Source: Escherichia phage ZX4221. Taken from it: DNA of 64,000 bases. A program made the translations under genes and the position numbers. Shown here one piece after another: positions 23,164-64,000 of this stretch; within the stretch, counting starts at the first letter, position 1; every line of letters begins with the position of its first letter. The stretch lies in sequence record OR498728.1. The stretch is one strand, 5' to 3'. The notes beneath the pieces were generated by a model. The model did no database searches, had not been told where the DNA came from, and saw only the letters and a list, made by a program, of their open reading frames with translations.

Positions 23164-23173
23164 CGTAAAAACC

Positions 23174-27249: not shown

Positions 27250-27672
27250 ATGCAGAAAATGTTTGTTCACCCAGACATAGCTGACTTTGTTAGAGCTTTG
27301 CAGAAGTTGGAAGAACTTGACATTGCTGCTCAACGGGAATATGCTCACCATCACAGGAGAATGGTTGATATACAACATGAAATAGAGTTGTCTGAAAACT
27401 ATGAAGATGACTTAAAATGCTCTGTATTTGAGCATATGAAAGATGTTGCTACAGCGAGACGTAAAGCTAAAGACACAGTTGCTTTACTAGATTCTCTTAA
27501 AAAGAGGTTGCAAAGTGGTACAGACCTGTGTAATCTAGCGTCACTGATTAATGATGTTGAAACTTCTTGGGATAGACATTACTATCCACGTTCTGAAAAG
27601 ACACTTGACTTTTCTTCATCCGAAAACTTAAAATGTTCTAGAAAGAAACTTAACCAACTGAGAGAGAAATAA
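27250..27672 (+). CDS. hypothetical protein
   Basis: 140 aa, first gene of plus-strand block. Confidence 0.35.
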   Translation: MQKMFVHPDIADFVRALQKLEELDIAAQREYAHHHRRMVDIQHEIELSENYEDDLKCSVFEHMKDVATARRKAKDTVALLDSLKKRLQSGTDLCNLASLINDVETSWDRHYYPRSEKTLDFSSSENLKCSRKKLNQLREK

Positions 27673-27673
27673 T

Positions 27674-28486: not shown

Positions 28487-28503
28487 GCATTTATAAATCT
28501 TAC

Positions 28504-28528
28504 AAGCCTCCTTAATTGGGGGCTTTTT
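28504..28528 (+). terminator. terminator-like hairpin
   Basis: AAGCCTCC-TTAATT-GGGGGCTT then TTTT (one mismatch). Confidence 0.4.
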
Positions 28529-28546
28529 AGTAATTAAGGGGATAAA

Positions 28547-29290: not shown

Positions 29291-29298
29291 AAGAGAGA

Positions 29299-29499
29299 AT
29301 GAAGATGAGAGTAAAAGATAATTTTAAGGTTATTGACCATCGTTTAGTGGAACTCTCATCTCTTTCCAATGAGGTAATGATTGAACGTCTTAAGAGAGTT
29401 GAATCACGAAGGAAAGAGATTGCAGATGAGATTCATGAACTGGACAAGATTGAAAATGGATTGAAGGCAGAACTACAACGAAGAGGTGCTAATGTCTAA
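29299..29499 (+). CDS. small coiled-coil protein (hypothetical)
   Basis: 66 aa. Confidence 0.3.
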   Translation: MKMRVKDNFKVIDHRLVELSSLSNEVMIERLKRVESRRKEIADEIHELDKIENGLKAELQRRGANV

Positions 29500-31477
29500 A
29501 GGTCGTAAATTGAAAGAGGCTGGTCAGTTTATTGGTCATTGTGCATGTCCACGTTGTGGTTCATCAGATGCTGGTTCAATCTACCATCATGACGATGATT
29601 CTTATTCAATGACTTGCTTTAGCTGTAACAAAGGTTTCCCAGAGTGGGATTTTGATAAAGGACAAATCGTGAGCACTTATTCTACTGGTTCAGATAATAA
29701 AAACCGTACTTTCCGTGGAATGGATTTAGACGATGTAAAAGAAAACCTAGAAGCAATGGACTTGAAAGATAGGAAGATTCCTGCAAAAGTCCTTGAACGT
29801 TTAGGTATCAAGGTTGACATTGATAGTGACGGTGAAATTGATGCACATTTCTATCCAACTTACAAACGTAATGAAGATGGCAAACTAGAACATGTTGGTT
29901 ATCGTGTTCGTCACCGTTACCCAGAAGACCATCCAAAAGAACACCTACGTGGTAAGTTAAAAGACTTTTCAGGTGGTGTTGGAGATATTAAAGGTGAACT
30001 GGCAATGTTCGGTTCATGGATTGCTCCAGAAGGTGGGAACCGACTGTTCATCTGGGAAGGTGAGATGGAATGTGCGACAGCTATCTACATGACTTCTTTG
30101 GCGATTAAAGATAAGTCTCGTCGTAAGAATTACTGTCACGTATCTGTTCCATCAGGTGCAAACATTAAGTCTATCAAAGACAACTATCAGTACATCACAT
30201 CATTTGATGAGATTTACTTGTGCTTTGATAACGATGAAGCAGGTGCTAAAGCTACCAAAGAGGCGGCTGGTATCCTACCTATTGAGAAGGTTCGTTTGTT
30301 CCAGTATCCAGAAGGTGTAAAAGACCTTAACGAATGGTGGACAAAGTTCTATAAAGAGAAAGACACAGTTCTGGAAGGATTTAAACAGCGTATCTACAAC
30401 GCACCTCGTTACTGCCCTGCTGGTATCAAGAACTTTGCAGATGGTTTTGAGGCAATGAAGAATCGTGGTCAGATTCCATTGATTCCTTTCCCAGAATCTT
30501 TCGGGGATTTGAACAGGTTGACTTATGGTGGTTATGGTTTAGGTGAGATTACAACTCTGGCAGCACCATCTTCAGTAGGTAAATCAGCATACACCCGTGA
30601 AATGATTTACACTGCTTGGAAGGAAACCGATTACAATATTGGTGTAATTCCAGTTGAAGATACCTATGAAGAGTTGATGGAGATGCTCTGTGCAATCCAC
30701 CTGAGCAAGCAGATTTCTGAGATTCCTTATGACGAACGTGATTGGGATGAATTAAAGGAAGCACACGCAGAACTATCTAAAGGTCGTCGTATCCACATCG
30801 TAGACCATCAAGGGGCAATTGACCAAGATAACCTGCTGGAATTTGTTGACTATCTTGTTAACAGTTTAGACTGTAAGATTATTATTCTTGACCCTATTAC
30901 GTTGGCTCTGTCACGTTCAGATACGGATGAAGAGGAAGTTTTGTCTGAACTATTGCGTCGTTGCAAACGCTACCAGTATGCACAGGTTAACGTCTGTCAC
31001 GTTCGTAAGAGTGCAGGTGGTCAGAAAGCTAACTCTGAAGGTGGGGATATTTCTGAAGAGGATATCAAGGGTTCTGGTGCATACTTCCAGATTTCCATGA
31101 ACAACATTCTGTTAATGCGTAACAAGGTTGACCCAGACCCTGTTAAGAAAAACTTGACAAAAATCAAGTTAACTAAGTGTCGTCGTCATGGTAAGTCAAC
31201 AGGTATTGCTGGACACACTTGGTACAATCCAGATACAGGCCGCCTTATCAAAGCTTCTGGATGTGGTGTTGACATTGATGGTGCAGCAGAAAATATCCGT
31301 CAACAGTTTGGCATTGGTGAAGCTGAAGACCATTACGATGACTCTTTACCTCATTATGAGGATGAAGTGTTTGACCGTGAGACTGGTGAAGTCTATACTG
31401 AAGAACAGCGTCAAAGCTCAACGATTCCACCTGTATTAAGTGAGGATGCAGATGACTGCCCGTTCGAAACTGAGTGA
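29486..31477 (+). CDS. DNA primase-helicase (T7 gp4-like)
   Basis: N-terminal Zn-binding CACPRCG...CFSCNKG; TOPRIM-like LCFDNDEAG; Walker A AAPSSVGKSAY. Confidence 0.8.
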   Translation: MLMSKGRKLKEAGQFIGHCACPRCGSSDAGSIYHHDDDSYSMTCFSCNKGFPEWDFDKGQIVSTYSTGSDNKNRTFRGMDLDDVKENLEAMDLKDRKIPAKVLERLGIKVDIDSDGEIDAHFYPTYKRNEDGKLEHVGYRVRHRYPEDHPKEHLRGKLKDFSGGVGDIKGELAMFGSWIAPEGGNRLFIWEGEMECATAIYMTSLAIKDKSRRKNYCHVSVPSGANIKSIKDNYQYITSFDEIYLCFDNDEAGAKATKEAAGILPIEKVRLFQYPEGVKDLNEWWTKFYKEKDTVLEGFKQRIYNAPRYCPAGIKNFADGFEAMKNRGQIPLIPFPESFGDLNRLTYGGYGLGEITTLAAPSSVGKSAYTREMIYTAWKETDYNIGVIPVEDTYEELMEMLCAIHLSKQISEIPYDERDWDELKEAHAELSKGRRIHIVDHQGAIDQDNLLEFVDYLVNSLDCKIIILDPITLALSRSDTDEEEVLSELLRRCKRYQYAQVNVCHVRKSAGGQKANSEGGDISEEDIKGSGAYFQISMNNILLMRNKVDPDPVKKNLTKIKLTKCRRHGKSTGIAGHTWYNPDTGRLIKASGCGVDIDGAAENIRQQFGIGEAEDHYDDSLPHYEDEVFDRETGEVYTEEQRQSSTIPPVLSEDADDCPFETE

Positions 31478-31547
31478 TAGTTATAAAAGAGAGGGGTTCA
31501 TACCCTTCTTTGAAGAAAAAAGTTTAAATAAATTTCAGGAAGAGTGT

Positions 31548-31576
31548 TTGACAAAGATTGATAGGTTCTATAGAAT
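31548..31576 (+). promoter_or_regulatory. sigma70-like promoter (TTGACA-17-TAGAAT)
   Basis: TTGACA 31548-31553, 17 nt spacer, TAGAAT 31571-31576. Confidence 0.5.
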
Positions 31577-31729
31577 GCTCCTCATGAAATGCGATGGGGA
31601 GGTTGCTATAAAAGAAGACTCCTACCAAAGCACGATTACAGTCATCATTACACTGCCTCAGCATAATATTAGTTGGCTGTTTATAATTAAAGAAAATGTG
31701 TTTGAATATCAAGTATATCGGAGAATATC

Positions 31730-31879
31730 ATGAAACACTCTAAAGCATTTGAAAAAGTTTTTGGGGATTCCTTAAAAGCCACTGCTGGCAAACCAGCAAA
31801 ATACTATGAAGAGAAGCGTGTAAGAACTGGAAAAACTGCACGCAAAGCAGCTTCTAAAGATAAGCACAACTTCCAGTAA
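31730..31879 (+). CDS. small basic ORF (49 aa, not in ORF track)
   Basis: MKHSKAFEKVFGDSLK...; GGAG RBS 7 nt upstream. Confidence 0.3.
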   Translation: MKHSKAFEKVFGDSLKATAGKPAKYYEEKRVRTGKTARKAASKDKHNFQ

Positions 31880-31886
31880 TTAATGT

Positions 31887-31915
31887 TTGACAATAGAGTA
31901 TCAACAAATTAGAAT
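31887..31915 (+). promoter_or_regulatory. sigma70-like promoter (TTGACA-17-TAGAAT) upstream of SSB-like gene
   Basis: GTTTGACAA...17 nt...TAGAAT, near-identical to promoter at 31548. Confidence 0.5.
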
Positions 31916-31951
31916 TGGTACTCTTCATAAATTGAGATAGAGGTTTAAATA

Positions 31952-32809
31952 ATGTCTAAAGTTGTTAAAATGAAAGCTCCGGTAGAGAAGTACAATGGTA
32001 CTGAACGTCAAACTCTGCGTTACCTGCTGAAAGATGTTTGGTTTTATTACCTGAACACTTCCCCACGTCCGGGAAAAGGTAAATCCATTGATAAGAAATT
32101 CCCAGGAAAAGACTGCAACTACAGTGTTTCAATTCTGGCAGAAGATGGTAACAAGCTGTTTAAAGAGTTCACTAAGTCTAAGAAAAACCCAGAAGGTTGG
32201 GATAAGGTTACTACTGAAGCAGTTGATGCAGATGACTTCGAAGAGAAGTTTGGTTGCAAACCACCTTTTGAAGCAGACACTTACTACATCTTGAAAGTAA
32301 GTCGTGCAGCAGCTTATAAAGATGGTGCTGTGTGGACAGCTAAACAGTCATTCCCTGTAATGCTGATTGAAGAAGTAAATGGTAAGCGTGTAGCTGTTAA
32401 ACAGCCGATGAAGAAAATCAAAGCTCAAGCATCTGATAAGCATGAAGATGACAAGAACTATGATGTAATTCATCCAGATATTGCAGTTGGTAACGGTTCT
32501 TTTGGTAGTGTGATTCTTTCTACTCACTTCTACACCTTTGAGAACAATGTTCTGACAAAACCTATTCAGGAACAGTTTATCATTGATACACTTGTACCTT
32601 ACACTGGTGGTAATGGTGCTAATGGCGAACCTGAACTGGATGAAGACGAACTGGCTATGCTTGGCCTTGATGGTGTTGAAGATAACGGTGAAATCACTGA
32701 AGAAGATGCAACAGACCACAAACCTTCGAATGATTCTGATGATGGTGACGATGAAGACTTACCAGACCCAGATGACGAAGAAGATGAAGACTTCGATACA
32801 GAAGACTAA
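31952..32809 (+). CDS. single-stranded DNA-binding protein (putative)
   Basis: 285 aa with extremely acidic C-terminal tail DDGDDEDLPDPDDEEDEDFDTED; between helicase and nuclease genes. Confidence 0.5.
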   Translation: MSKVVKMKAPVEKYNGTERQTLRYLLKDVWFYYLNTSPRPGKGKSIDKKFPGKDCNYSVSILAEDGNKLFKEFTKSKKNPEGWDKVTTEAVDADDFEEKFGCKPPFEADTYYILKVSRAAAYKDGAVWTAKQSFPVMLIEEVNGKRVAVKQPMKKIKAQASDKHEDDKNYDVIHPDIAVGNGSFGSVILSTHFYTFENNVLTKPIQEQFIIDTLVPYTGGNGANGEPELDEDELAMLGLDGVEDNGEITEEDATDHKPSNDSDDGDDEDLPDPDDEEDEDFDTED

Positions 32810-54765: not shown

Positions 54766-55094
54766 CTATGCAGATTAATGGAAGAGACTTTGTAGCTGTT
54801 TACTACGAGAAAGATAAAGAAGTTGGCGTAGCACAAGTATCTTATGGTAATGGTAAGTGGTTGTATGGAACAATCGCAGTAGTCGGAACAAGGAGTGATA
54901 CAAAAACTTTTAAAGATTGTGTTGACCTTCTTGAAGAATCCATCCACAATCATTGGTGTCTGATATGGATGACTGACAACGAAGTGATAGAACGCTTCAA
55001 AAAGATTGGTATCAACATTGATAGCATTGAGCATGTTGACTTGTATGAGCTAACTGAGAAGGTAAACTATGAAAGTAATACTAGCCAGAGATAA
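54762..55094 (+). CDS. hypothetical protein
   Basis: 110 aa, coupled. Confidence 0.3.
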   Translation: MTMQINGRDFVAVYYEKDKEVGVAQVSYGNGKWLYGTIAVVGTRSDTKTFKDCVDLLEESIHNHWCLIWMTDNEVIERFKKIGINIDSIEHVDLYELTEKVNYESNTSQR

Positions 55095-55302
55095 AAAGAC
55101 CCGCAAGATTGTACGTTCAGCAGTATTCATAGGGAGAGATGAAGTCGTCCCGTTTGCAGGGGAAGATGTGCTAACTTATAAGAAGGTTTTAAAACGTAAA
55201 TTCAGTGACCGTTTACGTGGCTTCATCTCTGAACCATTAGAAGATTTCAAAAGTCGCTGTGGCGAAGGCATCATCATTCAAGAGGCAATTATTCATGGCT
55301 GA
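55069..55302 (+). CDS. hypothetical protein
   Basis: 77 aa. Confidence 0.3.
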   Translation: MKVILARDKKTRKIVRSAVFIGRDEVVPFAGEDVLTYKKVLKRKFSDRLRGFISEPLEDFKSRCGEGIIIQEAIIHG

Positions 55303-55495
55303 TTTCTGCAAAGATTGTGCTATCGAAATGTTTGGACGTGATACAGGTGACTTAAAAGGTCTTATCACTGAAGATGACTTTAAAGCTGGTTATGCAATGC
55401 CAGTAATCTGTGAAGGTTGTGGGTGCATCTGGGTAGACCACGAAGGACAGCGTGTAAAACCTTCAGAAGATAAAGAATCTTGGGAGAGATGTTAA
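55295..55495 (+). CDS. small Cys-rich protein (hypothetical)
   Basis: CKDC ... CEGCGC; start placed at ATG 55295. Confidence 0.3.
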   Translation: MADFCKDCAIEMFGRDTGDLKGLITEDDFKAGYAMPVICEGCGCIWVDHEGQRVKPSEDKESWERC

Positions 55496-56281
55496 ATGGG
55501 TATTGTAAAAATCATCAAAGGTGATATCTTTGACGCATTTGATAAAGGTAAATTTGATATCATTGGTCATGGTTGCAACTGTATGAATTTCATGGGTGCA
55601 GGTATTGCAGCAACTATTTCTAAGCGTTATCCAAAAGTGTATGATACTGACACAGAAGTTTACCTGTTTGCAGGTGGCATTCGCCACAAACCTTGTGAAA
55701 ATTTACTCGGTAATTTCTCTGTAGCACGTTTAAAACAAGGTCGTATAGCTAACCTTTACACCCAACTCCATACTGGTAAAGATGCCCGATACAGTGCTTT
55801 AGAGTCATCTTTGAAGCAGCTTAACAGATACTGTGAAGTCAATCAGTTGAAGAAAGTCGGGTTACCTATGATTGGTGCAGGTATCGGTGGGCTAGACCCT
55901 CAAGCCGTCACAGTCATCATCAATCAGGTGATGAAGAGTGTAGATGTTTATCTGTATGTCTATGAAGGAGAGATGTACCACAAGTTACGCTCAGGTTGGA
56001 AGAACTACTGTGAACCAGAGTACTTTGCAGGTGTAGTTGTCTTCACAGATAACGCAGTTACCCTCTTCAGACGAAGAAAAGGTAAGATACATCAAAGTAA
56101 CCCTCCGGTTGAAAAGATGTCTCTAAGTAACGCTCTAGTTACCCACCTGTCGAAGAGCAACCACAGGATTGCTGTAACATTTGGTAGTGATGCAGAAACT
56201 TATATCTATGCAAGAACTGATGAGGATATCGAGACAGTTTTTTCTTCACCAGAAGTTACCTTCTTAGACGCAAAGAACTAA
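55496..56281 (+). CDS. macrodomain protein (ADP-ribose binding/hydrolase-like)
   Basis: IKGDIF, FDIIGHGCNCMNFMGAGIAATI and VGLPMIGAGIGGLD match macro-domain signature blocks as recalled. Confidence 0.55.
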   Translation: MGIVKIIKGDIFDAFDKGKFDIIGHGCNCMNFMGAGIAATISKRYPKVYDTDTEVYLFAGGIRHKPCENLLGNFSVARLKQGRIANLYTQLHTGKDARYSALESSLKQLNRYCEVNQLKKVGLPMIGAGIGGLDPQAVTVIINQVMKSVDVYLYVYEGEMYHKLRSGWKNYCEPEYFAGVVVFTDNAVTLFRRRKGKIHQSNPPVEKMSLSNALVTHLSKSNHRIAVTFGSDAETYIYARTDEDIETVFSSPEVTFLDAKN

Positions 56282-56337
56282 GAAACTCTGTAGAATATTC
56301 ACAATAGACTAAGCCTTTCTTATCTGGTAGATTTTTC

Positions 56338-56550
56338 AGGTAAGGAGGGCTTTTTCATTTCAGGATTGTGCAGGTAGAGTTCTGTAGAGAAGTCTGTAGA
56401 GAGAATTTTGAACTCCAAAGAGAAAATTCATTTTCAAACTGTGCAGGTAATCTCCAAAGAGCTTTTTCATTTTCAAAACGTGCAGAGAAAAATCAGGTCG
56501 GGCAAGAAAAATCATTTTAGAATTGTGCAGGTAGGTGGGTGCAGGTGGGG
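56338..56550. repeat. iteron-like degenerate direct repeats (TTCATTTTCA..TGTGCAGGTA)
   Basis: GTGCAG motif at about 56370, 56442, 56472, 56527 and 56539, each preceded by TTCATTTT-like sequence; CTGTAGAG repeated three times. Confidence 0.55.
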
Positions 56551-56719
56551 ATGTCGCCATTTCTCACAAGGCTACCACATCTGGAAATAAAAGTCAACAG
56601 AAAAATTTGTAGCGGATTGAAAAATAATTCTTGATTGTAGTTCTGTTTTGTGGTAGTCGCGCGCACCCGTTTCATTACAATTTTTGCAAAAAAAAAAAAA
56701 AATATTTTTAAAATTCCTA

Positions 56720-56798
56720 TTGACTCTTTGAGTATGGTTATCTAATATTTGCATCAGACGGGCAAGCAAGCCCACTTCCTAAACTGGAGAATCTAAAA
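56720..56798 (+). promoter_or_regulatory. strong sigma70-like promoter (TTGACT-17-TAATAT) with A15 tract upstream and leader hairpin
   Basis: TTGACT 56720-56725, TAATAT 56743-56748, hairpin GGGCAAGCAAGCCC, conserved RBS region CCTAAACTGGAGAATCTAAAAATG. Confidence 0.55.
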
Positions 56799-57005
56799 AT
56801 GCTTTACAGTCGTGAATTGATGGTTACAACTAACGTTAACACAAAGGTAAAACGTTTTTACATGCAAATTTGTGACGTATGGTCTAGAATATCAGAGGCT
56901 GACTATTGCAACTATGTAGAAACGGCTATTAATTCTAATTGCTACCTTACAAGAAACACTAAGAAATTTACAAGGCAGACAGCGATTTACTACTACGACA
57001 AATAA
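56799..57005 (+). CDS. small early protein (hypothetical)
   Basis: 68 aa; conserved leader/RBS cassette. Confidence 0.4.
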   Translation: MLYSRELMVTTNVNTKVKRFYMQICDVWSRISEADYCNYVETAINSNCYLTRNTKKFTRQTAIYYYDK

Positions 57006-57093
57006 AGTACTTTACAGGGGGCTTAAAAGTTGATATCTTAAGCCCCAGATAAAGAGCTTTACTAAATTAACCCTTAAACTAGGAGATTCAAAA
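57003..57093 (+). repeat. intergenic cassette type A (hairpin GGGGCTTAA..TTAAGCCCC + conserved RBS)
   Basis: AAGTACTTTACAGGGGGCTT...AGCCCCAGATAAAGAGCTTTAC...TAAACTAGGAGATTCAAAAATG. Confidence 0.6.
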
Positions 57094-57474
57094 ATGGCTT
57101 ATCGTGCACCGAAATTCATCAACAAAGACAACTTCCGCAACGCACTGGAGAAGTCACTTGATGAAAAATTTAACGGCAAATTGATTGTTGTCCACGCATT
57201 CAATTTTAAGTATGATATTAACGGGAATAAAATCAACCATTACACGGCAACCATGTTAGATGGCACGCTATCAAGTGAAAAAGCCGTACTGAATGCACTT
57301 GCAGGACGTGGTAAAAACCTGATAAGATGCGATAAGAGACGTTATCAGGGTGGCGCATATGGTTATGATGATGCTGTTTATCATCTTGAAAATATGGGCT
57401 ATTCAGTGGAAAAAGCTGGAGTGTCTCAAATAATCGGCAGTGACGGCTATGTGACAATTTTCAAAATTAACTGA
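57094..57474 (+). CDS. small early protein (hypothetical)
   Basis: 126 aa. Confidence 0.45.
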   Translation: MAYRAPKFINKDNFRNALEKSLDEKFNGKLIVVHAFNFKYDINGNKINHYTATMLDGTLSSEKAVLNALAGRGKNLIRCDKRRYQGGAYGYDDAVYHLENMGYSVEKAGVSQIIGSDGYVTIFKIN

Positions 57475-57562
57475 TAAAGTACTTTACAAGGGGCTTATAG
57501 TTCGATAAAGTAAGCCCCAGATAAAGAGCTTTACCACTCAATCCTAAATTGGAGATTCTAAA
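57475..57562 (+). repeat. intergenic cassette type A
   Basis: CTGATAAAGTACTTTACAAGGGGCTTATAGTTCGATAAAGTAAGCCCCAGATAAAGAGCTTTACCACT...GGAGATTCTAAAATG. Confidence 0.65.
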
Positions 57563-57820
57563 ATGGCTATTATCAAAAACGTTGTAATTGCTGCAAAAAC
57601 TCGTGATGACGCTCGCGTTATGGCTAAAAAGTTATGCGGAAAAGTTGTTGACAACGGGAAACAATCTGCTGTAAGGTGGAGCGTGAAGGCTGATAAACAA
57701 CTAACCTTAAAACGCAGTTCAAACAATCTTTTTAAAGGTGTAAAATCACTCGGTAAAGTGAACGTGTTTACCAAAAAAGGCTATAAAATGCACTTATCAT
57801 TAACTGGCAATTTAATCTGA
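57563..57820 (+). CDS. small early protein (hypothetical, basic)
   Basis: 85 aa. Confidence 0.45.
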   Translation: MAIIKNVVIAAKTRDDARVMAKKLCGKVVDNGKQSAVRWSVKADKQLTLKRSSNNLFKGVKSLGKVNVFTKKGYKMHLSLTGNLI

Positions 57821-57908
57821 TAAAGTACTTTACAGGGGGCTTAAAAGCTGATATCTTAAGCCCCAGATAAAGAGCTTTACCACTAAATCCTAAACTGGAG
57901 ATTCAAAA
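57821..57908 (+). repeat. intergenic cassette type A
   Basis: same cassette with variant hairpin loop. Confidence 0.65.
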
Positions 57909-58421
57909 ATGAAAACTGTAGACGCTACCTTTGAAGTTGTAAAAGAAAAATTCACCATTATTTATGAAGCTGTCAATTGCTTTGAAGCAAGCCATAATCT
58001 CGATAATTGGGAGTTTACAAACGACCATCAAGGCGGTGTGACTGTTAAAAATCCTAACTGTCAGCATAATGATTTTAAATATGCAATCCCTTTGCATTAC
58101 AGCCTTAAACAGCTTTCAAGTGACTATGCAAAACAAGGCCGCGATAATCCATCGAAAGAGGCTTACACGAGCTTACAGAAAGAACTAGAAAGAGATTTAG
58201 AGGCTTCAGAGTATAACCTTGCCGCGAAAGTTGTGGATGCAAACGGTAGCACGGTTTTAGAAAGTTTTTATCTTGGTTATGCTTTCGATTGGTGCTATCG
58301 TGACGGTGATGATTTAGAGGATAGACTAAAAGAAGAGGTGAACAACGCAGACGCAGAATCTGAAGTATTAGAACGTTTGGAATCGTTGAAAGACTCAGTG
58401 ATGAATATCTTTAAGAACTAA
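57909..58421 (+). CDS. small early protein (hypothetical)
   Basis: 170 aa. Confidence 0.45.
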   Translation: MKTVDATFEVVKEKFTIIYEAVNCFEASHNLDNWEFTNDHQGGVTVKNPNCQHNDFKYAIPLHYSLKQLSSDYAKQGRDNPSKEAYTSLQKELERDLEASEYNLAAKVVDANGSTVLESFYLGYAFDWCYRDGDDLEDRLKEEVNNADAESEVLERLESLKDSVMNIFKN

Positions 58422-58511
58422 ATAGATTTCTTTACACGGGGTTATCAAGCTGGTAGGATAGCCCCAGATAAAGAGATTTATCACTAAATCCTTAAACTAG
58501 GAGATTCAAAA
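58422..58511 (+). repeat. intergenic cassette type A (divergent copy)
   Basis: TTTCTTTACACGGGGTTATC...GATAGCCCCAGATAAAGAGATTTATCACTAAATCC...GGAGATTCAAAAATG. Confidence 0.55.
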
Positions 58512-58808
58512 ATGAAACTATCAAATAAAGTCCGTGAAAATCTAAGCAAGTTGCTTAATAAAATTGATTTCATTGAAACATCAAGGAATAGTCATGATGT
58601 TATGGAATGGTTACACGGAAAAATCAAAGGTCGTCGTGTAGTGATTTGCTTATGGAATAGTTGCAGGGAATATAAAAAACCTGTATTACAAGTCAATATC
58701 TATGATGATACTTTTAAAAGCCCTGTAAAGTCTAAAAGCGATTTATTAGAATCTTATGAGATAACTGTAAATGGCAAGGTATCACGTAAAGAGGAAGCAC
58801 CATGTTAA
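58512..58808 (+). CDS. small early protein (hypothetical)
   Basis: 98 aa. Confidence 0.45.
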   Translation: MKLSNKVRENLSKLLNKIDFIETSRNSHDVMEWLHGKIKGRRVVICLWNSCREYKKPVLQVNIYDDTFKSPVKSKSDLLESYEITVNGKVSRKEEAPC

Positions 58809-59134
58809 TGATGGGTATCACTGCAATCATTGCCATTATAGCACTTTACAAGGCTTATAGCGCATATAATTTGGCAAGTAAGGCAATCACGCAGCAGGTC
58901 AATAATAACCTTGTAATGAGCTTTCTGGAGCGTTTAAGCGATGAACAAATAAAACGGTTAGAAATGAGCTTCAGATTTCAATCAAAAACTTATCAAATCA
59001 GCGACATTTTCAAAGATGATTTTCAGCTTGTCGATGATTATAACTCTCTGATAAATGCTTTAAATATCAGTGATTTAAAAGATTATCATGCTGTAATAGT
59101 TCAAGAATTGAGCAAACGAAAAAATTCCTCTTGA
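58802..59134 (+). CDS. small membrane-anchored protein (hypothetical)
   Basis: 110 aa, N-terminal hydrophobic segment; overlaps previous gene by 7 nt with no cassette between. Confidence 0.4.
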   Translation: MLMMGITAIIAIIALYKAYSAYNLASKAITQQVNNNLVMSFLERLSDEQIKRLEMSFRFQSKTYQISDIFKDDFQLVDDYNSLINALNISDLKDYHAVIVQELSKRKNSS

Positions 59135-59140
59135 TTTTGG

Positions 59141-59224
59141 TTTTTAAAACAAGTAAATTACTAATCAACGGGGAGGTAATGACCTTCCCCACTAAGTAAA
59201 GTCCTTAAACTAGGAGATTCAAGA
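59141..59224 (+). promoter_or_regulatory. intergenic cassette type B: promoter TTGATT-17-TAAATT + leader hairpin + conserved RBS
   Basis: -35 59141-59146, -10 59164-59169, hairpin GGGGAGGTAATGACCTTCCCC. Confidence 0.55.
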
Positions 59225-59383
59225 ATGTTTTGTGCAGGTGATAAAGTTGTCTGGAATGATATAGATGACGGTTTATGTACGAAAGTTGTTGTTATCTTAG
59301 AAATTGATTATATCACTGGTGTTGCAACTGTAGCAGATAATGATATAATCTTTGATGTCTTAATTAGTGAACTGTCAAAATAA
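59225..59383 (+). CDS. small early protein (52 aa, not in ORF track)
   Basis: MFCAGDKVVWNDIDDG...; preceded by type B cassette. Confidence 0.4.
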   Translation: MFCAGDKVVWNDIDDGLCTKVVVILEIDYITGVATVADNDIIFDVLISELSK

Positions 59384-59407
59384 AACCTTAAACTAGGAGC
59401 TTTTAAA

Positions 59408-59680
59408 ATGTACACTACTAACAACGGTCGCACTTTAAACATAACCCTACGCCACTATGTGAACGGTGTAATGCACTTCGAGGATTTACAAGCTGAACAA
59501 CATATATTGGATTGGCAAGTAGCAGGACTCCAAAAAACTGCTACCGGATACGGGAAAAAGATTCCAACTAGTTGGAAAGTTCACTATGAAGGACGTTTGC
59601 GCAGAATTTATCAAGATGTTTACAGCAATAGCGCAGCAAGTTACATCATGGTAAAAGGTAAAAAGCTGCATTTAGTGTAA
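59408..59680 (+). CDS. small early protein (hypothetical)
   Basis: 90 aa; partial cassette AAACCTTAAACTAGGAGCTTTTAAAATG upstream. Confidence 0.4.
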   Translation: MYTTNNGRTLNITLRHYVNGVMHFEDLQAEQHILDWQVAGLQKTATGYGKKIPTSWKVHYEGRLRRIYQDVYSNSAASYIMVKGKKLHLV

Positions 59681-59765
59681 AGTACTTTACAAGGGGCTTA
59701 TAGTTCGATAAAGTAAGCCCCAGATAAAGAGCTTTACCACTCAATCCTAAATTGGAGATTCTAAA
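59681..59765 (+). repeat. intergenic cassette type A
   Basis: near-identical to 57475-57562. Confidence 0.65.
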
Positions 59766-60170
59766 ATGGCTATTAATAACCGTGAGTTATCAATCTTAAA
59801 AGCACGTTTGACCGTTAACCGGATTAATGTTATTACATCATCAGCACCGGATGAAACATTGCACAACATTATCGGGAAGATTCAAAGTGTTATCTTAGAC
59901 GTTGAAAACGTAAAAAACTCATTGTCTGACGTTGCAGCAGGTATCACGCTAGACGGTGCACAATATGAAATGGCTGACATGTTAGGCAAATCAAAGGTAA
60001 TGAATAAAGAGCTTGATTTAAAAATGTTTCGTTTTGCTGTTAAAGTGTGGCTATCTGTTGAGTATGACGCAAATTTTGCAATCGCTGACTTTTTCGCAAC
60101 ATGGTTGCAACGTAATTTAACAAATCATGATTTTCGTGATGTCTGTGATGCAATTTATGCAGAACTCTAA
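59766..60170 (+). CDS. small early protein (hypothetical)
   Basis: 134 aa. Confidence 0.45.
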   Translation: MAINNRELSILKARLTVNRINVITSSAPDETLHNIIGKIQSVILDVENVKNSLSDVAAGITLDGAQYEMADMLGKSKVMNKELDLKMFRFAVKVWLSVEYDANFAIADFFATWLQRNLTNHDFRDVCDAIYAEL

Positions 60171-60180
60171 AAAAATTTTG

Positions 60181-60274
60181 TTGACACTGGTTTTTAAAAC
60201 AAGTAAATTACCAATCAACGGGGAGGGAATGAACTTCCCCACTAAATAAAGTCCTTAAACTAGGAGATTCAAAA
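60181..60274 (+). promoter_or_regulatory. intergenic cassette type B: promoter TTGACA-17-TAAATT + leader hairpin + RBS
   Basis: -35 60181-60186, -10 60204-60209, hairpin GGGGAGGGAATGAACTTCCCC. Confidence 0.6.
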
Positions 60275-60472
60275 ATGGCTATTATTAATGGTTTAAACAT
60301 TGAAACTACTCATATCAAAGATATCAAAGTTGGCGATATAGTCCTTTTTCACGGCGTAGAAAAAACCGTCACTGAAAAGGATATCAAGGAGGATTCATTC
60401 ATGGGTCGGACGCTTTTCGGTGATTCTTATTGCTTAGGTTACCTTGCAGTTTTAAAAGTTGTAAAAAATTAA
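60275..60472 (+). CDS. small early protein (hypothetical)
   Basis: 65 aa. Confidence 0.4.
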   Translation: MAIINGLNIETTHIKDIKVGDIVLFHGVEKTVTEKDIKEDSFMGRTLFGDSYCLGYLAVLKVVKN

Positions 60473-60564
60473 CTGATAAAGTACTTTACAAGGGGCTTAT
60501 AGTTCGATAAAGTAAGCCCCAGATAAAGAGCTTTACCACTAAATCCTAAACTGGAGATTCTAAA
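60473..60564 (+). repeat. intergenic cassette type A
   Basis: near-identical to 57475-57562. Confidence 0.65.
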
Positions 60565-61107
60565 ATGAAATGCTTTCACGGTACTACTCAAGAAAACTTT
60601 ACCAACCTGCTTAATAACGGTGATAAACCATCAGGCGCATGGAATTGTTCGGATATGGACGGCAATTTTTACGTGTATCCAGAAAATAAAATCTATGGCG
60701 ACGATGAGGAAGAAATAATCTCTGAAGGTATCCAGCAGGCTCTAGGTAATGCAGCTATCACCGCAGCTTTCCAGATGAAAACCCAAAATATTGTTATCTT
60801 AGAACTTGATATCCCAGAGGATGACCTAAATGATGATTATTCTTGTGATAATATGTCGAGCGTGGCAAGTTTTACAGAGTATTTTGATATAAGCTGGATT
60901 AAAAAGGTTTACATCACTGAATTTAATGCTATGTTTTCACCTTTTTGTCTTCCTTCACTGGATAACCCAAATTTAAACTATCTTGATGAGTCTCTGGAAC
61001 TTCTCGCTAAAAGTGTTCAACAATCAGACAGTATTCAGGTTTTTTGTGACATCATGGATACACTAACAGGAAACATTGCAGAAGAGGATTTAAAGAGCTT
61101 TTTCTAA
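60565..61107 (+). CDS. small early protein (hypothetical, acidic)
   Basis: 180 aa. Confidence 0.45.
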   Translation: MKCFHGTTQENFTNLLNNGDKPSGAWNCSDMDGNFYVYPENKIYGDDEEEIISEGIQQALGNAAITAAFQMKTQNIVILELDIPEDDLNDDYSCDNMSSVASFTEYFDISWIKKVYITEFNAMFSPFCLPSLDNPNLNYLDESLELLAKSVQQSDSIQVFCDIMDTLTGNIAEEDLKSFF

Positions 61108-61173
61108 AAACCTATGCAATCACCTTATAAACACTATTCAGCCCCTACAAGGGGCTTCTAGGAGGCTTTAATC

Positions 61174-61407
61174 ATGCTTACAACCGTTTACCTCATCCTT
61201 TCTATTTGTAATGGTCATTCGTGCGATTTTAAAGGGCTTGAGGAGTTTACAGGAAGTAAAGAAAATGCTATTCAAGTTTGCCAGATAGCAAGGCAAGACT
61301 ATCCCGCCAGTGATGATATTCAATGCTACTTTAAGACAGAAGATGACGATGGAATCTATTTCGACAGTGTTGATGGTCAATATGAAATTATCATTGAAAA
61401 AGACTAG
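61174..61407 (+). CDS. small early protein (hypothetical)
   Basis: 77 aa; hairpin GCCCCTACAAGGGGC and AGGAGG RBS upstream. Confidence 0.4.
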   Translation: MLTTVYLILSICNGHSCDFKGLEEFTGSKENAIQVCQIARQDYPASDDIQCYFKTEDDDGIYFDSVDGQYEIIIEKD

Positions 61408-61498
61408 ACAAGCCTGATAAAAGTCTGTAAATTACACATCAACGGGGAGGGAATGACCTTCCCCACTAAATAAAGTCCTTAAACTAGGAGATTCAAAA
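61405..61498 (+). promoter_or_regulatory. intergenic cassette type B: promoter TAGACA-17-TAAATT + leader hairpin + RBS
   Basis: -35 61405-61410, -10 61428-61433; -35 overlaps the stop of the upstream gene. Confidence 0.55.
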
Positions 61499-61840
61499 AT
61501 GGCTTATGTAACCGTAATTACCGATAAAGAGGATTCATCTTGGTCAACTCAAGTAAGTGACAAGATGTCACCTATGCAGTGCCTAAAATACTTTGAGCAG
61601 TGGAATAAAGGAGAGGATATCAGCCCCTTTCAAGTGATGCAGATTATCCATACAGACAACGAAGGGATTAAAACGGTTTTAAATAGTGAGCACTACGCAA
61701 CCCGATTTGAAACGAGATGTAAAACGATGAAGTTATTACGTGAATCCGGTTATGCCCATATCGCCGCGTTAATCTGGGATGACCTGCTAAAAAGTCAGCG
61801 TATCAGCTATGTAAAACCTGAAAAAATATTCATCAGTTAA
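61499..61840 (+). CDS. small early protein (hypothetical)
   Basis: 113 aa. Confidence 0.45.
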   Translation: MAYVTVITDKEDSSWSTQVSDKMSPMQCLKYFEQWNKGEDISPFQVMQIIHTDNEGIKTVLNSEHYATRFETRCKTMKLLRESGYAHIAALIWDDLLKSQRISYVKPEKIFIS

Positions 61841-61969
61841 TCAACAACTTACAAAAAACTTTTAAAAAAGTATTGACAATACCCCTTGACATTGGTAACT
61901 TTGTTCGAGGGGGTTTATCTAAAAGGGATTAACTTAAAAGATTCTTTATAGATAAACTTAAAAAATTAC

Positions 61970-62060
61970 TTGCAATCAGATATCAAAACAAGTAAATTAC
62001 TAATCAACGGGAGGGAATGACCTTCCCCACTAAGTAAAGTCCTAAACTGGAGAATCTAAA
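61970..62060 (+). promoter_or_regulatory. intergenic cassette type B: promoter TTGCAA-17-TAAATT + leader hairpin + RBS
   Basis: -35 61970-61975, -10 61993-61998; extra TTGACA boxes and a CCCC/GGGG hairpin at 61873-61900. Confidence 0.55.
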
Positions 62061-62591
62061 ATGAATAAGTTCAAAGCTATCAACTTCATTCGTTCAAATG
62101 CTGTAATGTCTAAACCTGTTAAAGATACCTATGAATTTCGCTGCAATGGTGTGCACTTTGCAACCATCACCAAATCAGAAAACGGGGCTTATTACGTTCA
62201 TCGTCGTAATGCTGCAACCGTTGTAGTCTCACATTTTATGCAAGCTGTAGCGGAATTATTACCGCTATTCTTAGAGATTTATCTAGATGATTGCAAAAAC
62301 GTTCACAGCCACGTTAAAAACCTTTTAAACGGTTATAAAATGGCTTATGAGCGTTCTATCAAGTCCTTAAACAAGTTCTATAAAGCCCCTGTAAATACCG
62401 TTTCAATGGCCTACGGCGTAGGTGGCTGGACTGTTAACCTTTCTCTAGTGGAAGAAATCGAGCTTTACGACCATCGACCTAGCGGTTACTCTAAGACACT
62501 TGGTGAAGGTTTAACGTTCAATATCAAGAACTTAGAAAAAACTTTAAAAGATATTGAAAAAGATATTGACGAGACAATCAAAAGTCTGTAA
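62061..62591 (+). CDS. small early protein (hypothetical)
   Basis: 176 aa. Confidence 0.45.
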   Translation: MNKFKAINFIRSNAVMSKPVKDTYEFRCNGVHFATITKSENGAYYVHRRNAATVVVSHFMQAVAELLPLFLEIYLDDCKNVHSHVKNLLNGYKMAYERSIKSLNKFYKAPVNTVSMAYGVGGWTVNLSLVEEIELYDHRPSGYSKTLGEGLTFNIKNLEKTLKDIEKDIDETIKSL

Positions 62592-62657
62592 ATTGTCAAT
62601 CAACGGGGAGGGAATGACCTTCCCCACTAAGTAAAGTCCTAAACTGGAGATTCAAAA
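62566..62657 (+). promoter_or_regulatory. intergenic cassette type B: promoter TTGACG-17-TAAATT + leader hairpin + RBS
   Basis: -35 62566-62571 (inside 3' end of upstream gene), -10 62589-62594, hairpin 62605-62625. Confidence 0.6.
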
Positions 62658-62906
62658 ATGGCAACTATCCGCGCAATTGTAAATTCTTATGGCTGCTACA
62701 CTCTGGACGTTAAATTTGATATAGGTGGGACTGATGAGTGTTTCGAACTGGTGAAGACAGTCATTAAACAAGTTATCCCAGACTATAACCCTACTGATGA
62801 CTTCTGGAAAGATGCAGTAAAAGAGGCGCTGAACGATGAATATCATTACCATTATTGGGGTGATTTGATTGTCTCCCTGTACTACAATAAACAAGGTTGC
62901 AACTAA
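62658..62906 (+). CDS. small early protein (hypothetical)
   Basis: 82 aa. Confidence 0.45.
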   Translation: MATIRAIVNSYGCYTLDVKFDIGGTDECFELVKTVIKQVIPDYNPTDDFWKDAVKEALNDEYHYHYWGDLIVSLYYNKQGCN

Positions 62907-62915
62907 TCGACGCAA

Positions 62916-62995
62916 CGGGGCTAAATAGCCCCAGATACCTTTACAGCCCCTTTATATAGATTCGATAGAGTCTATCTCATAGGGGCTTTTTTACG
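62916..62995 (+). terminator. compound hairpin/terminator at end of small-gene cluster
   Basis: GGGGCTAAATAGCCCC, then CCCCTTTATATAG...CTCATAGGGGC followed by TTTTTT. Confidence 0.45.
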
Positions 62996-63399
62996 TCCTA
63001 TCAAATCCCTTATACAACCCTTTCCCTTTCCTTTCCAGAATCTTACTAGACCTTAAAAAGCAATAACTCTATAGCTTACTCTATAGCCTTTTATTAAATC
63101 AACTTAAATATAAGCCCATAACCCGAAAGGGAAGGGCAACCATTAATTGGTATTGTTACCAATCCCTTAAACGCTCTATAAAGCCCTATAACGGCCTTAT
63201 TAACCTAACTTAAGGGATTGCATTACCTCACTCTAAAAAGCCCTTTATAGAGCTTTCTAGAGCCTTAAAAGAATCTTATAAGGGTGTGAGCTTTATCATC
63301 TCGTTAGAATTCTTGTGAATAACTAAACAACCCCTTGATAGTCACTAAAAAGTGTGTTATAGGGGCTTTAAAGTTACTTTGAAGTAGCTTAAAAGTTAC

Positions 63400-63990
63400 G
63401 TAAATGCTAGCCCCCTTAACATTTTCTTAACAATTTCTTAACAACCCCTACATAGTTATGCTTTTAAGGCACTTGTTAGCAACTTGTTAGCCCCTTGTTA
63501 AATATCTGTTAAGACCACGTAAAAGCCTTGTAAGAGTCTTTAGCATAGCCTTTAAAGCCTCTGTAAAGCCCTATAAAGAGGTGTTTGTATAGTTGGGGTG
63601 TAATTACTAGGAAGAGACTTAAAAGAGCTTACAAAGAGCTATAGAGAGCTTTTAAGAGGGCTATTTAGAGAATCACTAAGAGGGAAAGGGAACGATAAGA
63701 AAAGAGATAGTGACCATGTTAATAGCTTGTTAAAAAGATTAAACACTTGTTAGGAACTTGTTAATTATCTTAACAAAATAACTCTTAAAAATTAACTTGT
63801 TAGCTCTTGTTAGTCATCTGTTAAGACTCTGTAAAGTCTATGTATCAACTGTTAAGAACTTGTTACACCCTTGTTAGTTCTGTTAAGAATCTGTTAAGAC
63901 CTCTGAAGAGATGTTAAGAGGATGTAGTAGCTGTTAAGAGATTGTTAAGGATATTTTAAAATTCTGCAAAGTACTTGTAAGGGAGCTGTT
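63400..63990. repeat. dense array of degenerate heptamer repeats (CTTGTTAG / CTGTTAAG / TTGTAAG)
   Basis: about 20 copies in about 590 bp; no ORF of 60 aa or more on either strand from 62916 to 64000. Confidence 0.6.
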
Positions 63991-64000
63991 AAGGGCTACC

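Follow-up and report, generated by a model that had tools for sequence, protein, structure and literature searches.

The type A units of the ORFan array

The window analysed, a stretch of 64,000 nucleotides from Escherichia phage ZX4221 (OR498728.1) assigned to Felixounavirus (Felix O1-like phage), carries on its + strand an array of ORFans (56720-62990) that runs from a first sigma-70-like promoter (TTGACT-17-TAATAT, 56720-56748) to a closing U-tract terminator (about 62943-62990). No function is known for any of the 10 array ORFs tested, and no + strand terminator was found inside the array by the terminator-scan criteria, so that transcriptional read-through is to be expected; another canonical U-tract terminator of the same genome lies at 56311-56352. 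Six near-identical copies of a unit of about 90 bp, type A, separate small early genes of the array, each of them beginning at the stop codon that closes one ORF and ending at the ATG that opens the following one, with ORFans on both sides. Interleaved with them are the type B cassettes (about 59119, 60169, 61393, 61960 and 62554), in which TTGACA-17-TAAATT is followed by a hairpin, GGGGAGG..CCTTCCCC.

The six type A copies claimed in an earlier note were all recovered in place, on the + strand. Pattern searches of the window found GGGGCTTA-N13-TAAGCCCCAGATAAAGAG five times (0.00 expected) and CCCCAGATAAAGAGCTTTAC, allowing up to 3 mismatches, six times (0.02 expected), and a repeat search distributed the copies between families D1 and D6. 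A covariance model trained on copies from relatives returned exactly six strong + strand matches in the 64-kb window, with scores of 72-91 bits (57000-57064, 57472-57536, 57818-57882, 58420-58483, 59675-59739 and 60474-60538). Cassette 1 (57003-57096, 90.8 bits) extends from the TAA of a 68-aa ORF (57003-57005) to the ATG of a 126-aa ORF (57094), with the SD GGAG at 57082-57085 and a predicted 5'UTR of 47 nt. Cassettes 2 (57472-57565, 88.5 bits) and 3 (57818-57911, 89.5 bits) begin with TGA codons (57472-57474 and 57818-57820) and lead to an 85-aa ORF (ATG 57563, SD 57551-57554) and a 170-aa ORF (ATG 57909, SD 57897-57900), respectively. The other three begin with TAA: cassette 4, a class II variant (58419-58514, 72 bits; TAA 58419-58421), precedes a 98-aa ORF (ATG 58512, SD 58500-58503), cassette 5 (59678-59768, 86.3 bits; TAA 59678-59680) a 134-aa ORF (ATG 59766, SD 59754-59757), and cassette 6 (60470-60567, 88.5 bits; TAA 60470-60472) a 180-aa ORF (ATG 60565, SD 60553-60556). 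Cassette 4 had been described as keeping the common flanks around a different stem; its stem is indeed different (GGGGTTATC/GATAGCCCC), but its 5' flank differs too (ATAGATTTCTTTACA).

Among relatives, the indel breakpoints are located within the cassettes. With respect to the window, phage P54 carries an extra gene between two cassette copies, at 60463-60568 (cassette 6), while IME338 lacks the 85-aa gene that cassettes 2 and 3 enclose and shows further breakpoints within the shared RBS segment. One downstream gene occurs with different upstream partners across relatives.

A promoter-like core

By promoter scan, all six window copies read TTTACA-17-TAnnnT, with TG before the -10 in three of them. 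In cassettes 1 (core 57011-57047) and 3 (57829-57865), the -35 TTTACA (57011-57016 and 57829-57834) is separated by 17 nt from the -10 TATCTT (57034-57039 and 57852-57857), which is preceded by TGA, and the predicted start sites are A57047 and A57865. Cassettes 2 (57483-57519), 5 (59686-59722) and 6 (60485-60521) combine TTTACA (57483-57488, 59686-59691 and 60485-60490), at the same spacing, with the -10 TAAAGT (57506-57511, 59709-59714 and 60508-60513) and predicted starts at A57519, A59722 and A60521. The core of cassette 4 (58431-58466) consists of TTTACA (58431-58436), a 17-nt spacer, TGG before the -10 TAGGAT (58454-58459), and a 6-nt discriminator leading to a predicted +1 at A58466.

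The same geometry recurs in relatives, whose 143 copies yielded 106 distinct cores: TAnnnT follows TTTACA in 105 of these, at 17 nt (98 cores) or 18 nt (7), and an A is located 6-7 nt past the -10, so that type A resembles a sigma-70 promoter with a G+C-rich stem-loop in its spacer and discriminator. There are 11 different TAnnnT hexamers, and TGn precedes 59 of the 105 (56%). Although it occupies a loop position not required by the structure, the TA of the -10 never varies, whereas the remaining loop columns do. Thus, of the earlier description of a kept stem with a varying loop, the part on the loop has to be amended, since the invariant TA is followed, four bases on, by a T that is at least 90% conserved. 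Class II copies differ in length by 1 nt, a change located downstream of the -10 that therefore preserves the 17-nt spacer. In Kolesnikvirus copies, TTTACA is followed at 17 or 18 nt by TAGTAT, TAGTCT, TACCAT or TAATCT, and hybrid cassettes of this genus have TTGCAA in place of TTTACA, at an equal distance from another hairpin.

The suggestion that type A might carry a -10-only or phage-modified promoter at the upstream TAAAGTAC was not borne out: this hexamer has no conserved -35, and its T(-7) is missing from two of the four copies in Kolesnikvirus and from a few in Felixounavirus. The embedded sigma-70-type promoter appears complete, the -35 being the invariant TTTACA of CTTTACA and the -10 the TAnnnT towards the 3' side of the "loop". 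The likeness to type B, in which TAAATTAC is the -10, therefore does not reflect positional equivalence.

By RT-PCR in Felix O1, which gives a coarse timing, ORF16 and ORF20, placed directly after type A copies, were maximal at 5 min. The same held for ORF21 and ORF22, which are driven by type B; for ORF17, another gene preceded by type A, the maximum came at 25 min. The promoter prediction made by the Felix O1 authors did not report the type A sites, and a literature search for a transcriptome of phages like Felix O1 yielded none. Against a promoter, a hairpin-forming G+C-rich spacer and a GCCCC discriminator are unusual in strong sigma-70 promoters. Furthermore, TTTACA and T(-7) also lie within the RNA helix, and part of their conservation could therefore be structural.

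An extended hairpin maintained by compensatory changes

All six window copies fold as an extended hairpin, with z-scores of -3.7 to -4.6, in which the flanks lengthen a G+C-rich apical stem-loop (-10 to -16 kcal/mol) into an interrupted helix of about 20 bp. In cassette 1 (57003-57061, apical stem-loop 57018-57046; MFE -24.3 kcal/mol, z -3.78), the flanking helices are CUUUA/UAAAG and UAAAGU/GCUUUA. Equivalent structures were obtained for cassettes 2 (57472-57536, apical 57490-57518; -25.3, z -3.79), 3 (57818-57882, apical 57836-57864; -25.6, z -3.72), 5 (59674-59741, apical 59693-59721; -29.0, z -4.64) and 6 (60474-60538, apical 60492-60520; -25.3, z -3.75). The class II hairpin of cassette 4 (58422-58481) has 13 contiguous lower pairs and the apical stem GGGGUUAUC/GAUAGCCCC (58438-58465), and its + strand folds at -28.7 (z -4.58) whereas the - strand reaches only -21.4 (z -1.82).

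The check proposed in the earlier note, stem covariation across relatives, gave a positive answer: the type A stem is maintained by compensatory changes in Felixounavirus, Mooglevirus and Kolesnikvirus, 95.7% of the cells are paired, and no shuffle reached the observed covariation score. After re-registering the class II copies, pair 24-46 was CG (62), UG (42) or UA (1), pair 26-44 was UA (81) or AU (25), pair 28-43 AU (79) or UA (21), and pair 29-42 AU (34), UG (29), CG (23) or UA (15), counts which, given the shared descent of the copies and recombination among them, over-state the number of independent events. Outer helix pair 8-61 is GC (83), UA (14) or GU (2), where UA may derive from a single event, and Kolesnikvirus stems have GGUG/CACC where others have GGGG/CCCC. 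In the + sense, G·U occupied 88 cells and A·C or C·A only 5, a bias that supports the RNA-level role suggested earlier. For the copy found most often, the minus strand is no less stable when folded (-32.1 kcal/mol), and this strand argument therefore depends on the variants bearing G·U.

Interpretation and comparison with known systems

Taken from sequence, the evidence points to type A as a probable member of the PeSL (promoter-early stem-loop) kind of regulatory cassette, a composite of an early promoter and an RNA hairpin. On DNA, it would act as a sigma-70-type early promoter driving the downstream ORFan, with, in order, an A/T-rich stretch containing the upstream stop codon, the -35 TTTACA, a 17-18-bp spacer, often TGn, and the -10 TAnnnT; transcription would start at the A of AGATAAAG and a standard leader of about 45 nt would lead to the SD (CCTAAACTGGAG-N8-ATG). 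The G+C-rich inverted repeat would occupy spacer and discriminator, so that the stem-loop would end at about -1, outside the cassette's own transcript, and be made only in read-through RNA from upstream promoters. In such RNA, CUUUA of the -35 region, together with an upstream UAAAG, would pair with the first leader bases (UAAAG...CUUUA) into the interrupted helix. This helix may mark off the upstream message at its 3' end, by blocking 3' exonucleases, by serving as an RNase III-type processing site cut close to the promoter's +1, or by attenuation. Since the unit of about 90 bp stands ahead of many unrelated ORFans, its copies would offer sites for homologous recombination that inserts, deletes and re-orders genes.

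Some of the same evidence might be read differently. The stem-loop could be a terminator or attenuator that stops or lowers upstream transcription and insulates each ORFan module, a lesser but appreciable possibility which, as a role for the hairpin, is compatible with the composite cassette. When inserted between a promoter and lacZ, a PeSL stem-loop (RB49/phi1) lowered expression about as much as rrnB T1, overlapping promoter-terminators are reported to be common in bacteria (10.64898/2026.08.19.745784), and the strength of the G+C-rich stem is in keeping with this. As had been noted earlier, however, the hairpin is not followed by a U-tract (one T in the 10 nt after it, AGATAAAGAG), and the terminator scan was negative at all copies in a genome that does have canonical U-tract terminators, which argues against a canonical terminator; the conserved lower helices would also be unnecessary for intrinsic termination. 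An unlikely reading, near that of the earlier note, is that type A is purely an RNA element, an intercistronic processing or stability hairpin of polycistronic early transcripts (cut by RNase III or RNase E, for instance, or holding off 3' exonucleases) whose -35/-10 likeness is incidental. Covariation with + sense G·U bias, the expected read-through and the location of TTTACA itself within the helix would suit it, as would a two-turn interrupted helix fitting the RNase III reactivity epitopes (PMC1540722), but it leaves unexplained the invariant TA and frequent TG in an unpaired loop, the TAnnnT common to 11 different hexamers, the 17-18-nt distance to TTTACA persisting through indels and genus-level divergence, and the substitution of TTGCAA for TTTACA.

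Quite improbable is a DNA-level role in which the near-palindromes TAAAGnnCTTTA flanking the hairpin are operators for a phage regulator, for instance in early-transcription shut-off. Both flanks are highly conserved 5+5 inverted repeats, and their positions, one over the -35 and the other at +3 to +14, would suit repression. Nevertheless, within-site pairs 8-11 and 58-61 each showed 19 unpaired cells and no double changes, 14 of those substitutions being compensated across the sites (pair 8-61, G-C to U-A), and Kolesnikvirus AAAAG with CUUUU is another cross-site compensation; moreover, the sites are 47 bp (about 4.5 helical turns) apart and no candidate protein was identified. Many near-identical copies, breakpoints within them and shuffled neighbours could also be expected of a selfish or neutral repeat, small mobile or homogenised by gene conversion (MITE- or REP-like), with no regulatory role. 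This is hardly credible for a unit of constant orientation and constant register from stop codon to RBS and ATG, with neither target duplications nor terminal inverted repeats apart from the hairpin, not present in any of 5,426 complete E. coli genomes, and conserved in three genera with compensatory changes and preserved promoter geometry.

The composite cassette can be compared with several systems. Type B shares with type A the ORFan array, the orientation, the RBS segment (CCTTAAACTAGGAG-N8-ATG) and the combination of promoter and G/C hairpin, but it has TTGACA-17-TAAATT, lacks the extended two-turn helix, and its hairpin lies just past the predicted +1, hence at the 5' end of its own transcript. 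The T7 early region reportedly contains RNase III processing sites, R0.3 to R1.3, which resemble type A in being intercistronic, about two helical turns long, with an internal loop and no U-tract, in a polycistronic early operon. Several T7 R sites adjoin a promoter for the same gene; there the helix stands beside the promoter, whereas in type A it is superimposed on the predicted one, and the sequences are unrelated. Cleavage by RNase III in T7 gives the upstream mRNA a protective 3' hairpin (Pertzev and Nicholson 2006, PMC1540722). In promoter-coupled terminators (Fletcher et al. 2026, bioRxiv 10.64898/2026.08.19.745784), one segment likewise provides an upstream stem-loop and a downstream promoter, with transcription start and termination (or 3' end) lying a few bases apart; there the -35 is contributed by the stem-loop, with a T-tract in the spacer preceding the downstream -10, whereas the type A stem-loop lies between -35 and +1 and has no T-tract. 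The geometry of locus L086 (about 15692-15760) is nearer to these promoter-coupled terminators. As in T4 MotA/AsiA-dependent middle promoters (Hinton 2010, PMC2988021), some type A copies have a MotA-box-like (A/T)TGCTTTA and a TAnnnT -10; a middle promoter of this type was rejected, given a box-to--10 distance of about 19 bp versus 11-13 bp and the presence of TGCTTTA in a minority of copies only.

PeSL cassettes were first described in T4-like phages (RB49/phi1, PST and nt-1; Arbiol et al. 2010, PMC2839356; Comeau et al. 2014, PMC4122927), with the stem-loop mostly between -35 and -10 or over the -10; they proved to be strong promoters, and terminator activity and mini-circle formation were also demonstrated. 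Cassettes of this kind have apparently not been reported before in Felix O1-like phages; in the genome paper on Felix O1, the type A units appear only as direct repeats. Type A, as read from its sequence, differs from PeSLs in belonging to Ounavirinae instead of Tevenvirinae, in its unrelated sequence with TTTACA as -35, in forming a single sequence family in three genera, and in having a predicted -35 region and predicted first transcribed bases that extend the stem-loop to a helix of about 20 bp with covariation and + sense G·U bias. Both share a stop codon in an A/T-rich stretch, sigma-70-like -35 and -10, a G/C-rich stem-loop, an SD and a start codon, both are repeated ahead of ORFans in plastic early regions, and in both the indel or replacement breakpoints of close relatives fall within the cassettes.

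Cassette copies and the early ORFan array

The six copies of the type A cassette, a spacer unit of about 90 bp which the earlier note had listed at 57003, 57475, 57821, 58422, 59681 and 60473, were all present on the + strand. Two type A core patterns matched 5 and 6 times, where shuffled sequences predict 0.00 and 0.02, and a covariance model from relatives returned exactly six strong + strand matches in the 64 kb. Every unit fills the gap between two ORFs, including the stop codon of the first and the ATG of the second: the upstream stop codon lies in or adjoining (A/G)TAAAG at the 5' end, and the 3' end carries GGAG-N8-ATG, 44-47 nt past the predicted +1. IMG/VR was then scanned with a degenerate pattern, giving 81 stretches, from which a profile search plus a regular-expression parse recovered 143 copies. 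Among these, 106 distinct sequences of the 65-nt core and 54 distinct hairpin regions occur. Non-Felix contigs returned by the pattern scan, which the profile search did not recover, were treated as chance matches, and a covariance-model alignment (A2) into which minus-strand matches had been mixed was left out of the counts. In the alignment of copies CTTTACA, GGGG, CCCC and AGATAAAG were invariant, as was a TA dinucleotide within the apparently variable loop, and a T four bases past this TA was at least 90% conserved.

Among 5,426 complete E. coli genomes none contained the unit, and a host REP-like repeat was rejected on this result. An Rfam search of 55000-64000 at a permissive threshold gave no family at its gathering score, the sole match being a chance-level mir-22 (20.9 bits against a gathering score of 48, E = 0.4). 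Felix O1 has the same sequences, which its genome paper lists only as repeats, "57 bp direct repeats" separating genes 15/16 and 19/20 and "39 bp repeats" separating genes 18/19 and 20/21; those repeats were assigned no function and are absent from the promoters predicted there.

Sequence matches place the window in Felixounavirus, subfamily Ounavirinae. The region 56700-61200 matched 248 phage records, nearly all Felixounavirus of Escherichia, Salmonella, Shigella or Citrobacter, phage skuden being the best (91% across the full query). Downstream of a phosphatase gene, small ORFs follow one another on the + strand, and the cassettes sit in this array, which the first promoter (56720) opens and a U-tract terminator near 62943-62990 closes. 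None of the 10 array ORFs tested matched Pfam, and all 10 were assigned to function-unknown PHROG families. Type A cassettes interleave, all co-oriented, with type B cassettes, in which TTGACA-17-TAAATT is followed by a GGGGAGG..CCTTCCCC hairpin. Ordinary U-tract terminators stand at both borders of the array in this genome, and none was found inside it on the + strand by the terminator-scan criteria.

Other elements were recorded in and around the array. At 61868-61912, upstream of type B cassette 4 and in the 220-nt spacer preceding a 176-aa ORF, there is a third promoter/hairpin composite (TTGACA-17-TAACTT between ACCCC...GGGGT arms). A plain intergenic hairpin at 61140-61173 (AGCCCCTACAAGGGGCT), with neither promoter-like hexamers nor a U-tract, ends 2 nt ahead of the SD AGGAGG of a 77-aa ORF. 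At 62907-62990 a degenerate cassette remnant, GGGGCTAAATAGCCCC-AGATA-CCTTTACA, is joined to the U-tract terminator that ends the array, the counterpart of Felix O1 t23. Between the post-phosphatase terminator and the first early promoter lie three direct repeats of about 34 nt (56413-56530; CTCCAAAGAG..TTTTCATTTTCAAAnnGTGCAG), spaced 39 and 45 nt; a C-rich stretch and 15 consecutive A residues come after them. Four similar repeats occupy the equivalent site in Mooglevirus (~9880-10090 of that contig) and in the Kolesnikvirus Erwinia phage vEam_W_25 (~9850-10020), and these could be iterons or regulator sites. Elsewhere, 19674-21424 holds five copies of a unit of about 89 nt, in which TTAAAAGACCCTCTTAAAGACCTTTTAAAAAGG comes after heptad-like C-rich repeats (CCnnACC...); 15000-32000 contains no tRNA genes.

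Comparison of relatives located several rearrangements at the cassettes. At cassette 6 (60463-60568) the alignment with phage P54 is interrupted and its segments overlap, and P54 carries an extra 249-bp gene flanked by two cassette copies. IME338 lacks the 85-aa gene that separates cassettes 2 and 3 in the window, and its further breakpoints lie where cassette 4 begins or within the RBS segment common to types A and B. Over all copies, one downstream gene occurs behind differing upstream genes, a qualitative result drawn from a crude Hamming clustering of upstream and downstream partners. The P54 record (PV390658, vB_EcoM_P54) is labelled Tequatrovirus and its matched region is Felixounavirus-like, and Felix O1-like sequence also occurs in GU169904 (Staphylococcus phage SA1, 147 kb); the former is likely mislabelled and the latter likely chimeric.

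Some junctions and gene starts also deserve mention. In one IMG/VR contig (~6868) an RBS-ATG is joined directly to CTTTACATGGGG of a type A cassette, and the 68-aa ORF at 56799 of the window starts ATGCTTTACA, both suggesting recombination within the CTTTACA motif. In vEam_W_25 a type A cassette (13690-13754) lies inside the annotated 5' end of gp111, whose annotated start is probably wrong. The annotated ATG of ORF19 in Felix O1 (NC_005282, 3984) falls in a type B hairpin loop (GGGGAGGGAatgACC...), upstream of the conserved SD, and is probably mis-annotated too.

A probable promoter within the cassette

Consensus scanning placed TTTACA and TAnnnT 17 nt apart in all six window copies, with TAAAGT, TATCTT or TAGGAT as the -10 hexamer and a TG ahead of it in three. 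TAnnnT was present in 105 of the 106 distinct cores (98 at 17 nt and 7 at 18 nt from TTTACA), which together contained 11 different -10 hexamers, preceded by TGn in 59 cores. The A of AGATAAAG lies 6-7 nt past the -10 hexamer, the usual position of a start site. The positions mattering most in a sigma-70 -10 element are T-12, A-11 and T-7, and it is with these that the conserved loop positions coincide, the middle three being free to vary. Class II copies, which have a different stem (for example cassette 4, at 58422), keep the 17-nt spacer because their one-base length difference is downstream of the -10. The arrangement recurs in the distant genus Kolesnikvirus, whose four copies in the Erwinia phage read TTTACA-17/18-TAGTAT, TAGTCT, TACCAT or TAATCT, and whose hybrid cassettes have TTGCAA in place of TTTACA at an equal distance from another hairpin.

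Type A precedes ORF16, ORF17 and ORF20 in Felix O1. By RT-PCR in that phage, ORF16 and ORF20 reached their maximum at 5 min, as did ORF21 and ORF22, which type B drives, and ORF17, ORF19 and ORF23 peaked at 25 min; this weak evidence does not point to a separate temporal class for type A. Literature searches found no transcriptome or TSS map of any Felix O1-like phage.

Other placements or kinds of promoter were considered. The earlier note had suggested a -10-only promoter, at the upstream TAAAGTAC. That site has no conserved -35, a TGn precedes it only where the stop codon is TGA, and its T(-7) is lost in the TAAAGA/AAAAGA of Kolesnikvirus and in TAGACC/TAAAGC variants; the suggestion had misplaced the -10 and overlooked the embedded pair (TTTACA-17/18-TAnnnT). 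A second promoter starting from the 3' CTTTAC(C) finds no acceptable -10 at 16-18 nt downstream, and its -10 would land in GGAGATTC, removing the SD. Some copies recall the T4 MotA box, (a/t)(a/t)(a/t)TGCTTtA with its centre at -30 and 11-13 bp from a TAnnnT -10 (PMC2988021), but CTTTA ends about 19 bp ahead of the -10, the wrong spacing for a MotA-dependent middle promoter, and TGCTTTA is confined to a minority, the variant copies with ...GTGCTTTACA or ...TTGCTTTACA. An N4-type hairpin promoter for a virion RNA polymerase was set aside, the Felix O1 genome paper describing no phage RNA polymerase. On its sequence, the most probable identity of type A is that of a host-type early promoter, and we consider it likely that the whole unit is a composite of promoter and RNA hairpin. 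We hold any particular role of the hairpin with much less confidence.

The hairpin and its possible roles

The apical stem, of 9-10 bp, lies between the -35 and the +1. All 54 distinct hairpin regions folded, at about -10 to -16 kcal/mol except for one outlier (-6.3 kcal/mol). Since the MAFFT alignment mis-registers the class II 3' arm, so that uncorrected inner-stem counts under-state pairing, pairs were recounted with a shifted register. The corrected counts were CG 62, UG 42 and UA 1 for pair 24-46; UA 81 and AU 25 for 26-44; AU 79 and UA 21 for 28-43; and AU 34, UG 29, UA 15 and CG 23 for 29-42. GGUG...CACC in Kolesnikvirus likewise replaces the GGGG...CCCC of Felixounavirus. Compensatory changes in relatives, the check that the earlier note had proposed for its conserved hairpin, thus maintain the stem. 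Of the non-Watson-Crick cells, 88 were G·U when read in the + sense and 5 were A·C or C·A, which on the opposite strand would be G·U. Such an excess is the pattern expected of a stem selected as + strand RNA and is not expected from a DNA cruciform or a minus-strand RNA, which supports the RNA-level role put forward previously. The variant copy at 58414-58514 folds at -28.7 kcal/mol on the + strand against -21.4 on the minus, and the commonest copy folds well on either.

All six window copies were predicted to fold further, into a three-part hairpin (z-scores -3.7 to -4.6), in which UAAAG(U) pairs with (G)CUUUA in the lower helix, CUUUA of the -35 region pairs with UAAAG at +3 to +7 of the predicted transcript in the middle helix, and the apical stem caps the structure. 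In every copy the predicted helices measure 9 + 5 + 6 bp, about 20 bp in total, and are interrupted by one 3x3 internal loop and one 1x1 mismatch. A possible reason for the invariance of AGATAAAG is that it must stay complementary to the promoter-constrained -35 region. Because both flanks are near-palindromic, a DNA operator was also tested: the within-site pairs 8-11 and 58-61 had 19 broken cells each and 0 compensated, whereas the cross-site pair 8-61 was GC in 83, UA in 14 and GU in 2. The Kolesnikvirus flanks pair AAAAG with CUUUU. This substitution pattern favours a long-range RNA helix over an operator, though few independent events may lie behind the counts.

As the stem's last C directly precedes the predicted start, mRNA begun at the cassette itself would lack the hairpin, which would form only in read-through RNA from upstream promoters. 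What it would do there has several possible answers. A G/C-rich hairpin is what an intrinsic terminator begins with, but no U-tract lies 3' of it, AGAUAAAGAG standing there instead, and the terminator scan was blank at all copies, as the earlier note's doubts about a terminator had anticipated. Given that U-tract terminators do occur at the array borders, efficient intrinsic termination here is unlikely. E. coli RNase III substrates consist of about two turns of dsRNA, often with an internal loop confining cleavage to one strand, and the RNase III sites of phage T7 are cut once, which leaves a protective hairpin at the 3' end (PMC1540722). All six predicted helices have the two turns of a T7 R-site type substrate, and the interrupted helix fits the E. 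coli RNase III reactivity epitopes, so a processing role may be inferred from the modelled fold. Simple shielding of the RNA against 3' exonucleases, or a partial attenuation like that described for the stem-loops of T4-like phages, would be no less plausible.

A more specific, and doubtful, proposal is that the cassette is doubly coded, a promoter overlaid on an RNA processing site and conserved across three Ounavirinae genera. The -35 hexamer region and the first transcript bases would form the two strands of the lower stem of the two-turn helix, which would be present in read-through transcripts only. This helix would be cleaved at or adjoining the +1 of the promoter itself, by host RNase III or some other factor specific for dsRNA. 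Monocistronic mRNAs of read-through origin and newly initiated ones would then share an identical 5' end, and each upstream message would gain a protective 3' hairpin.

Significance and comparison with known systems

Whichard et al. (2010), who logged the units as direct repeats only, were unable to say how Felix O1 transcription passes terminators or is timed. Read as promoters, the cassettes would give most early-array ORFans their own transcription start, and would improve the annotation of about 250 sequenced Felix O1-like phages. These phages are widely used in the typing and biocontrol of Salmonella and E. coli. Cassettes of this modular-shuffling kind would not be restricted to T4-like phages, supporting repeated promoter cassettes as a general means for virulent phages to acquire, drop and rearrange accessory early genes. 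Promoter elements superposed on an RNA helix with a + sense G·U signature may also serve as a model of compact dual-use regulatory sequence.

Bacterial promoter-coupled terminators and the T7 RNase III sites are functional analogues of type A and unrelated to it. The former geometry was seen in vEam_W_25 at ~15692-15760, where a canonical terminator (GGGGCTTTACAGCCCC-TTTTT) has TTTACA in its loop and TATACT 18 nt downstream. The closest counterparts are the promoter-early stem-loops (PeSLs) of T4-like phages (PMC2839356, PMC4122927), in which a sigma-70-like promoter is combined with a stem-loop mostly between the -35 and -10 or overlapping the -10, and which stand ahead of ORFans in hyperplastic regions and mediate modular shuffling. 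Judged from sequence, type A matches them point by point in anatomy, setting and recombination behaviour: it has a sigma-70-like -35/-10 pair at about 17-bp spacing, a stable G/C-rich stem-loop within or adjoining the promoter, a 5' stop codon in an A/T-rich region and a 3' SD and start codon, and it is clustered before ORFans in a plastic region with indel breakpoints in the cassettes. We found no paper applying the PeSL concept to Felix O1-like phages. Type A differs from PeSLs in its sequence, in its host, an Ounavirinae phage and not a T4-like one as in the original definition, and in a stem-loop extended into a two-turn helix through the promoter's own flanks; given this host, type A would be the same kind of element as a PeSL, in a different sequence family.
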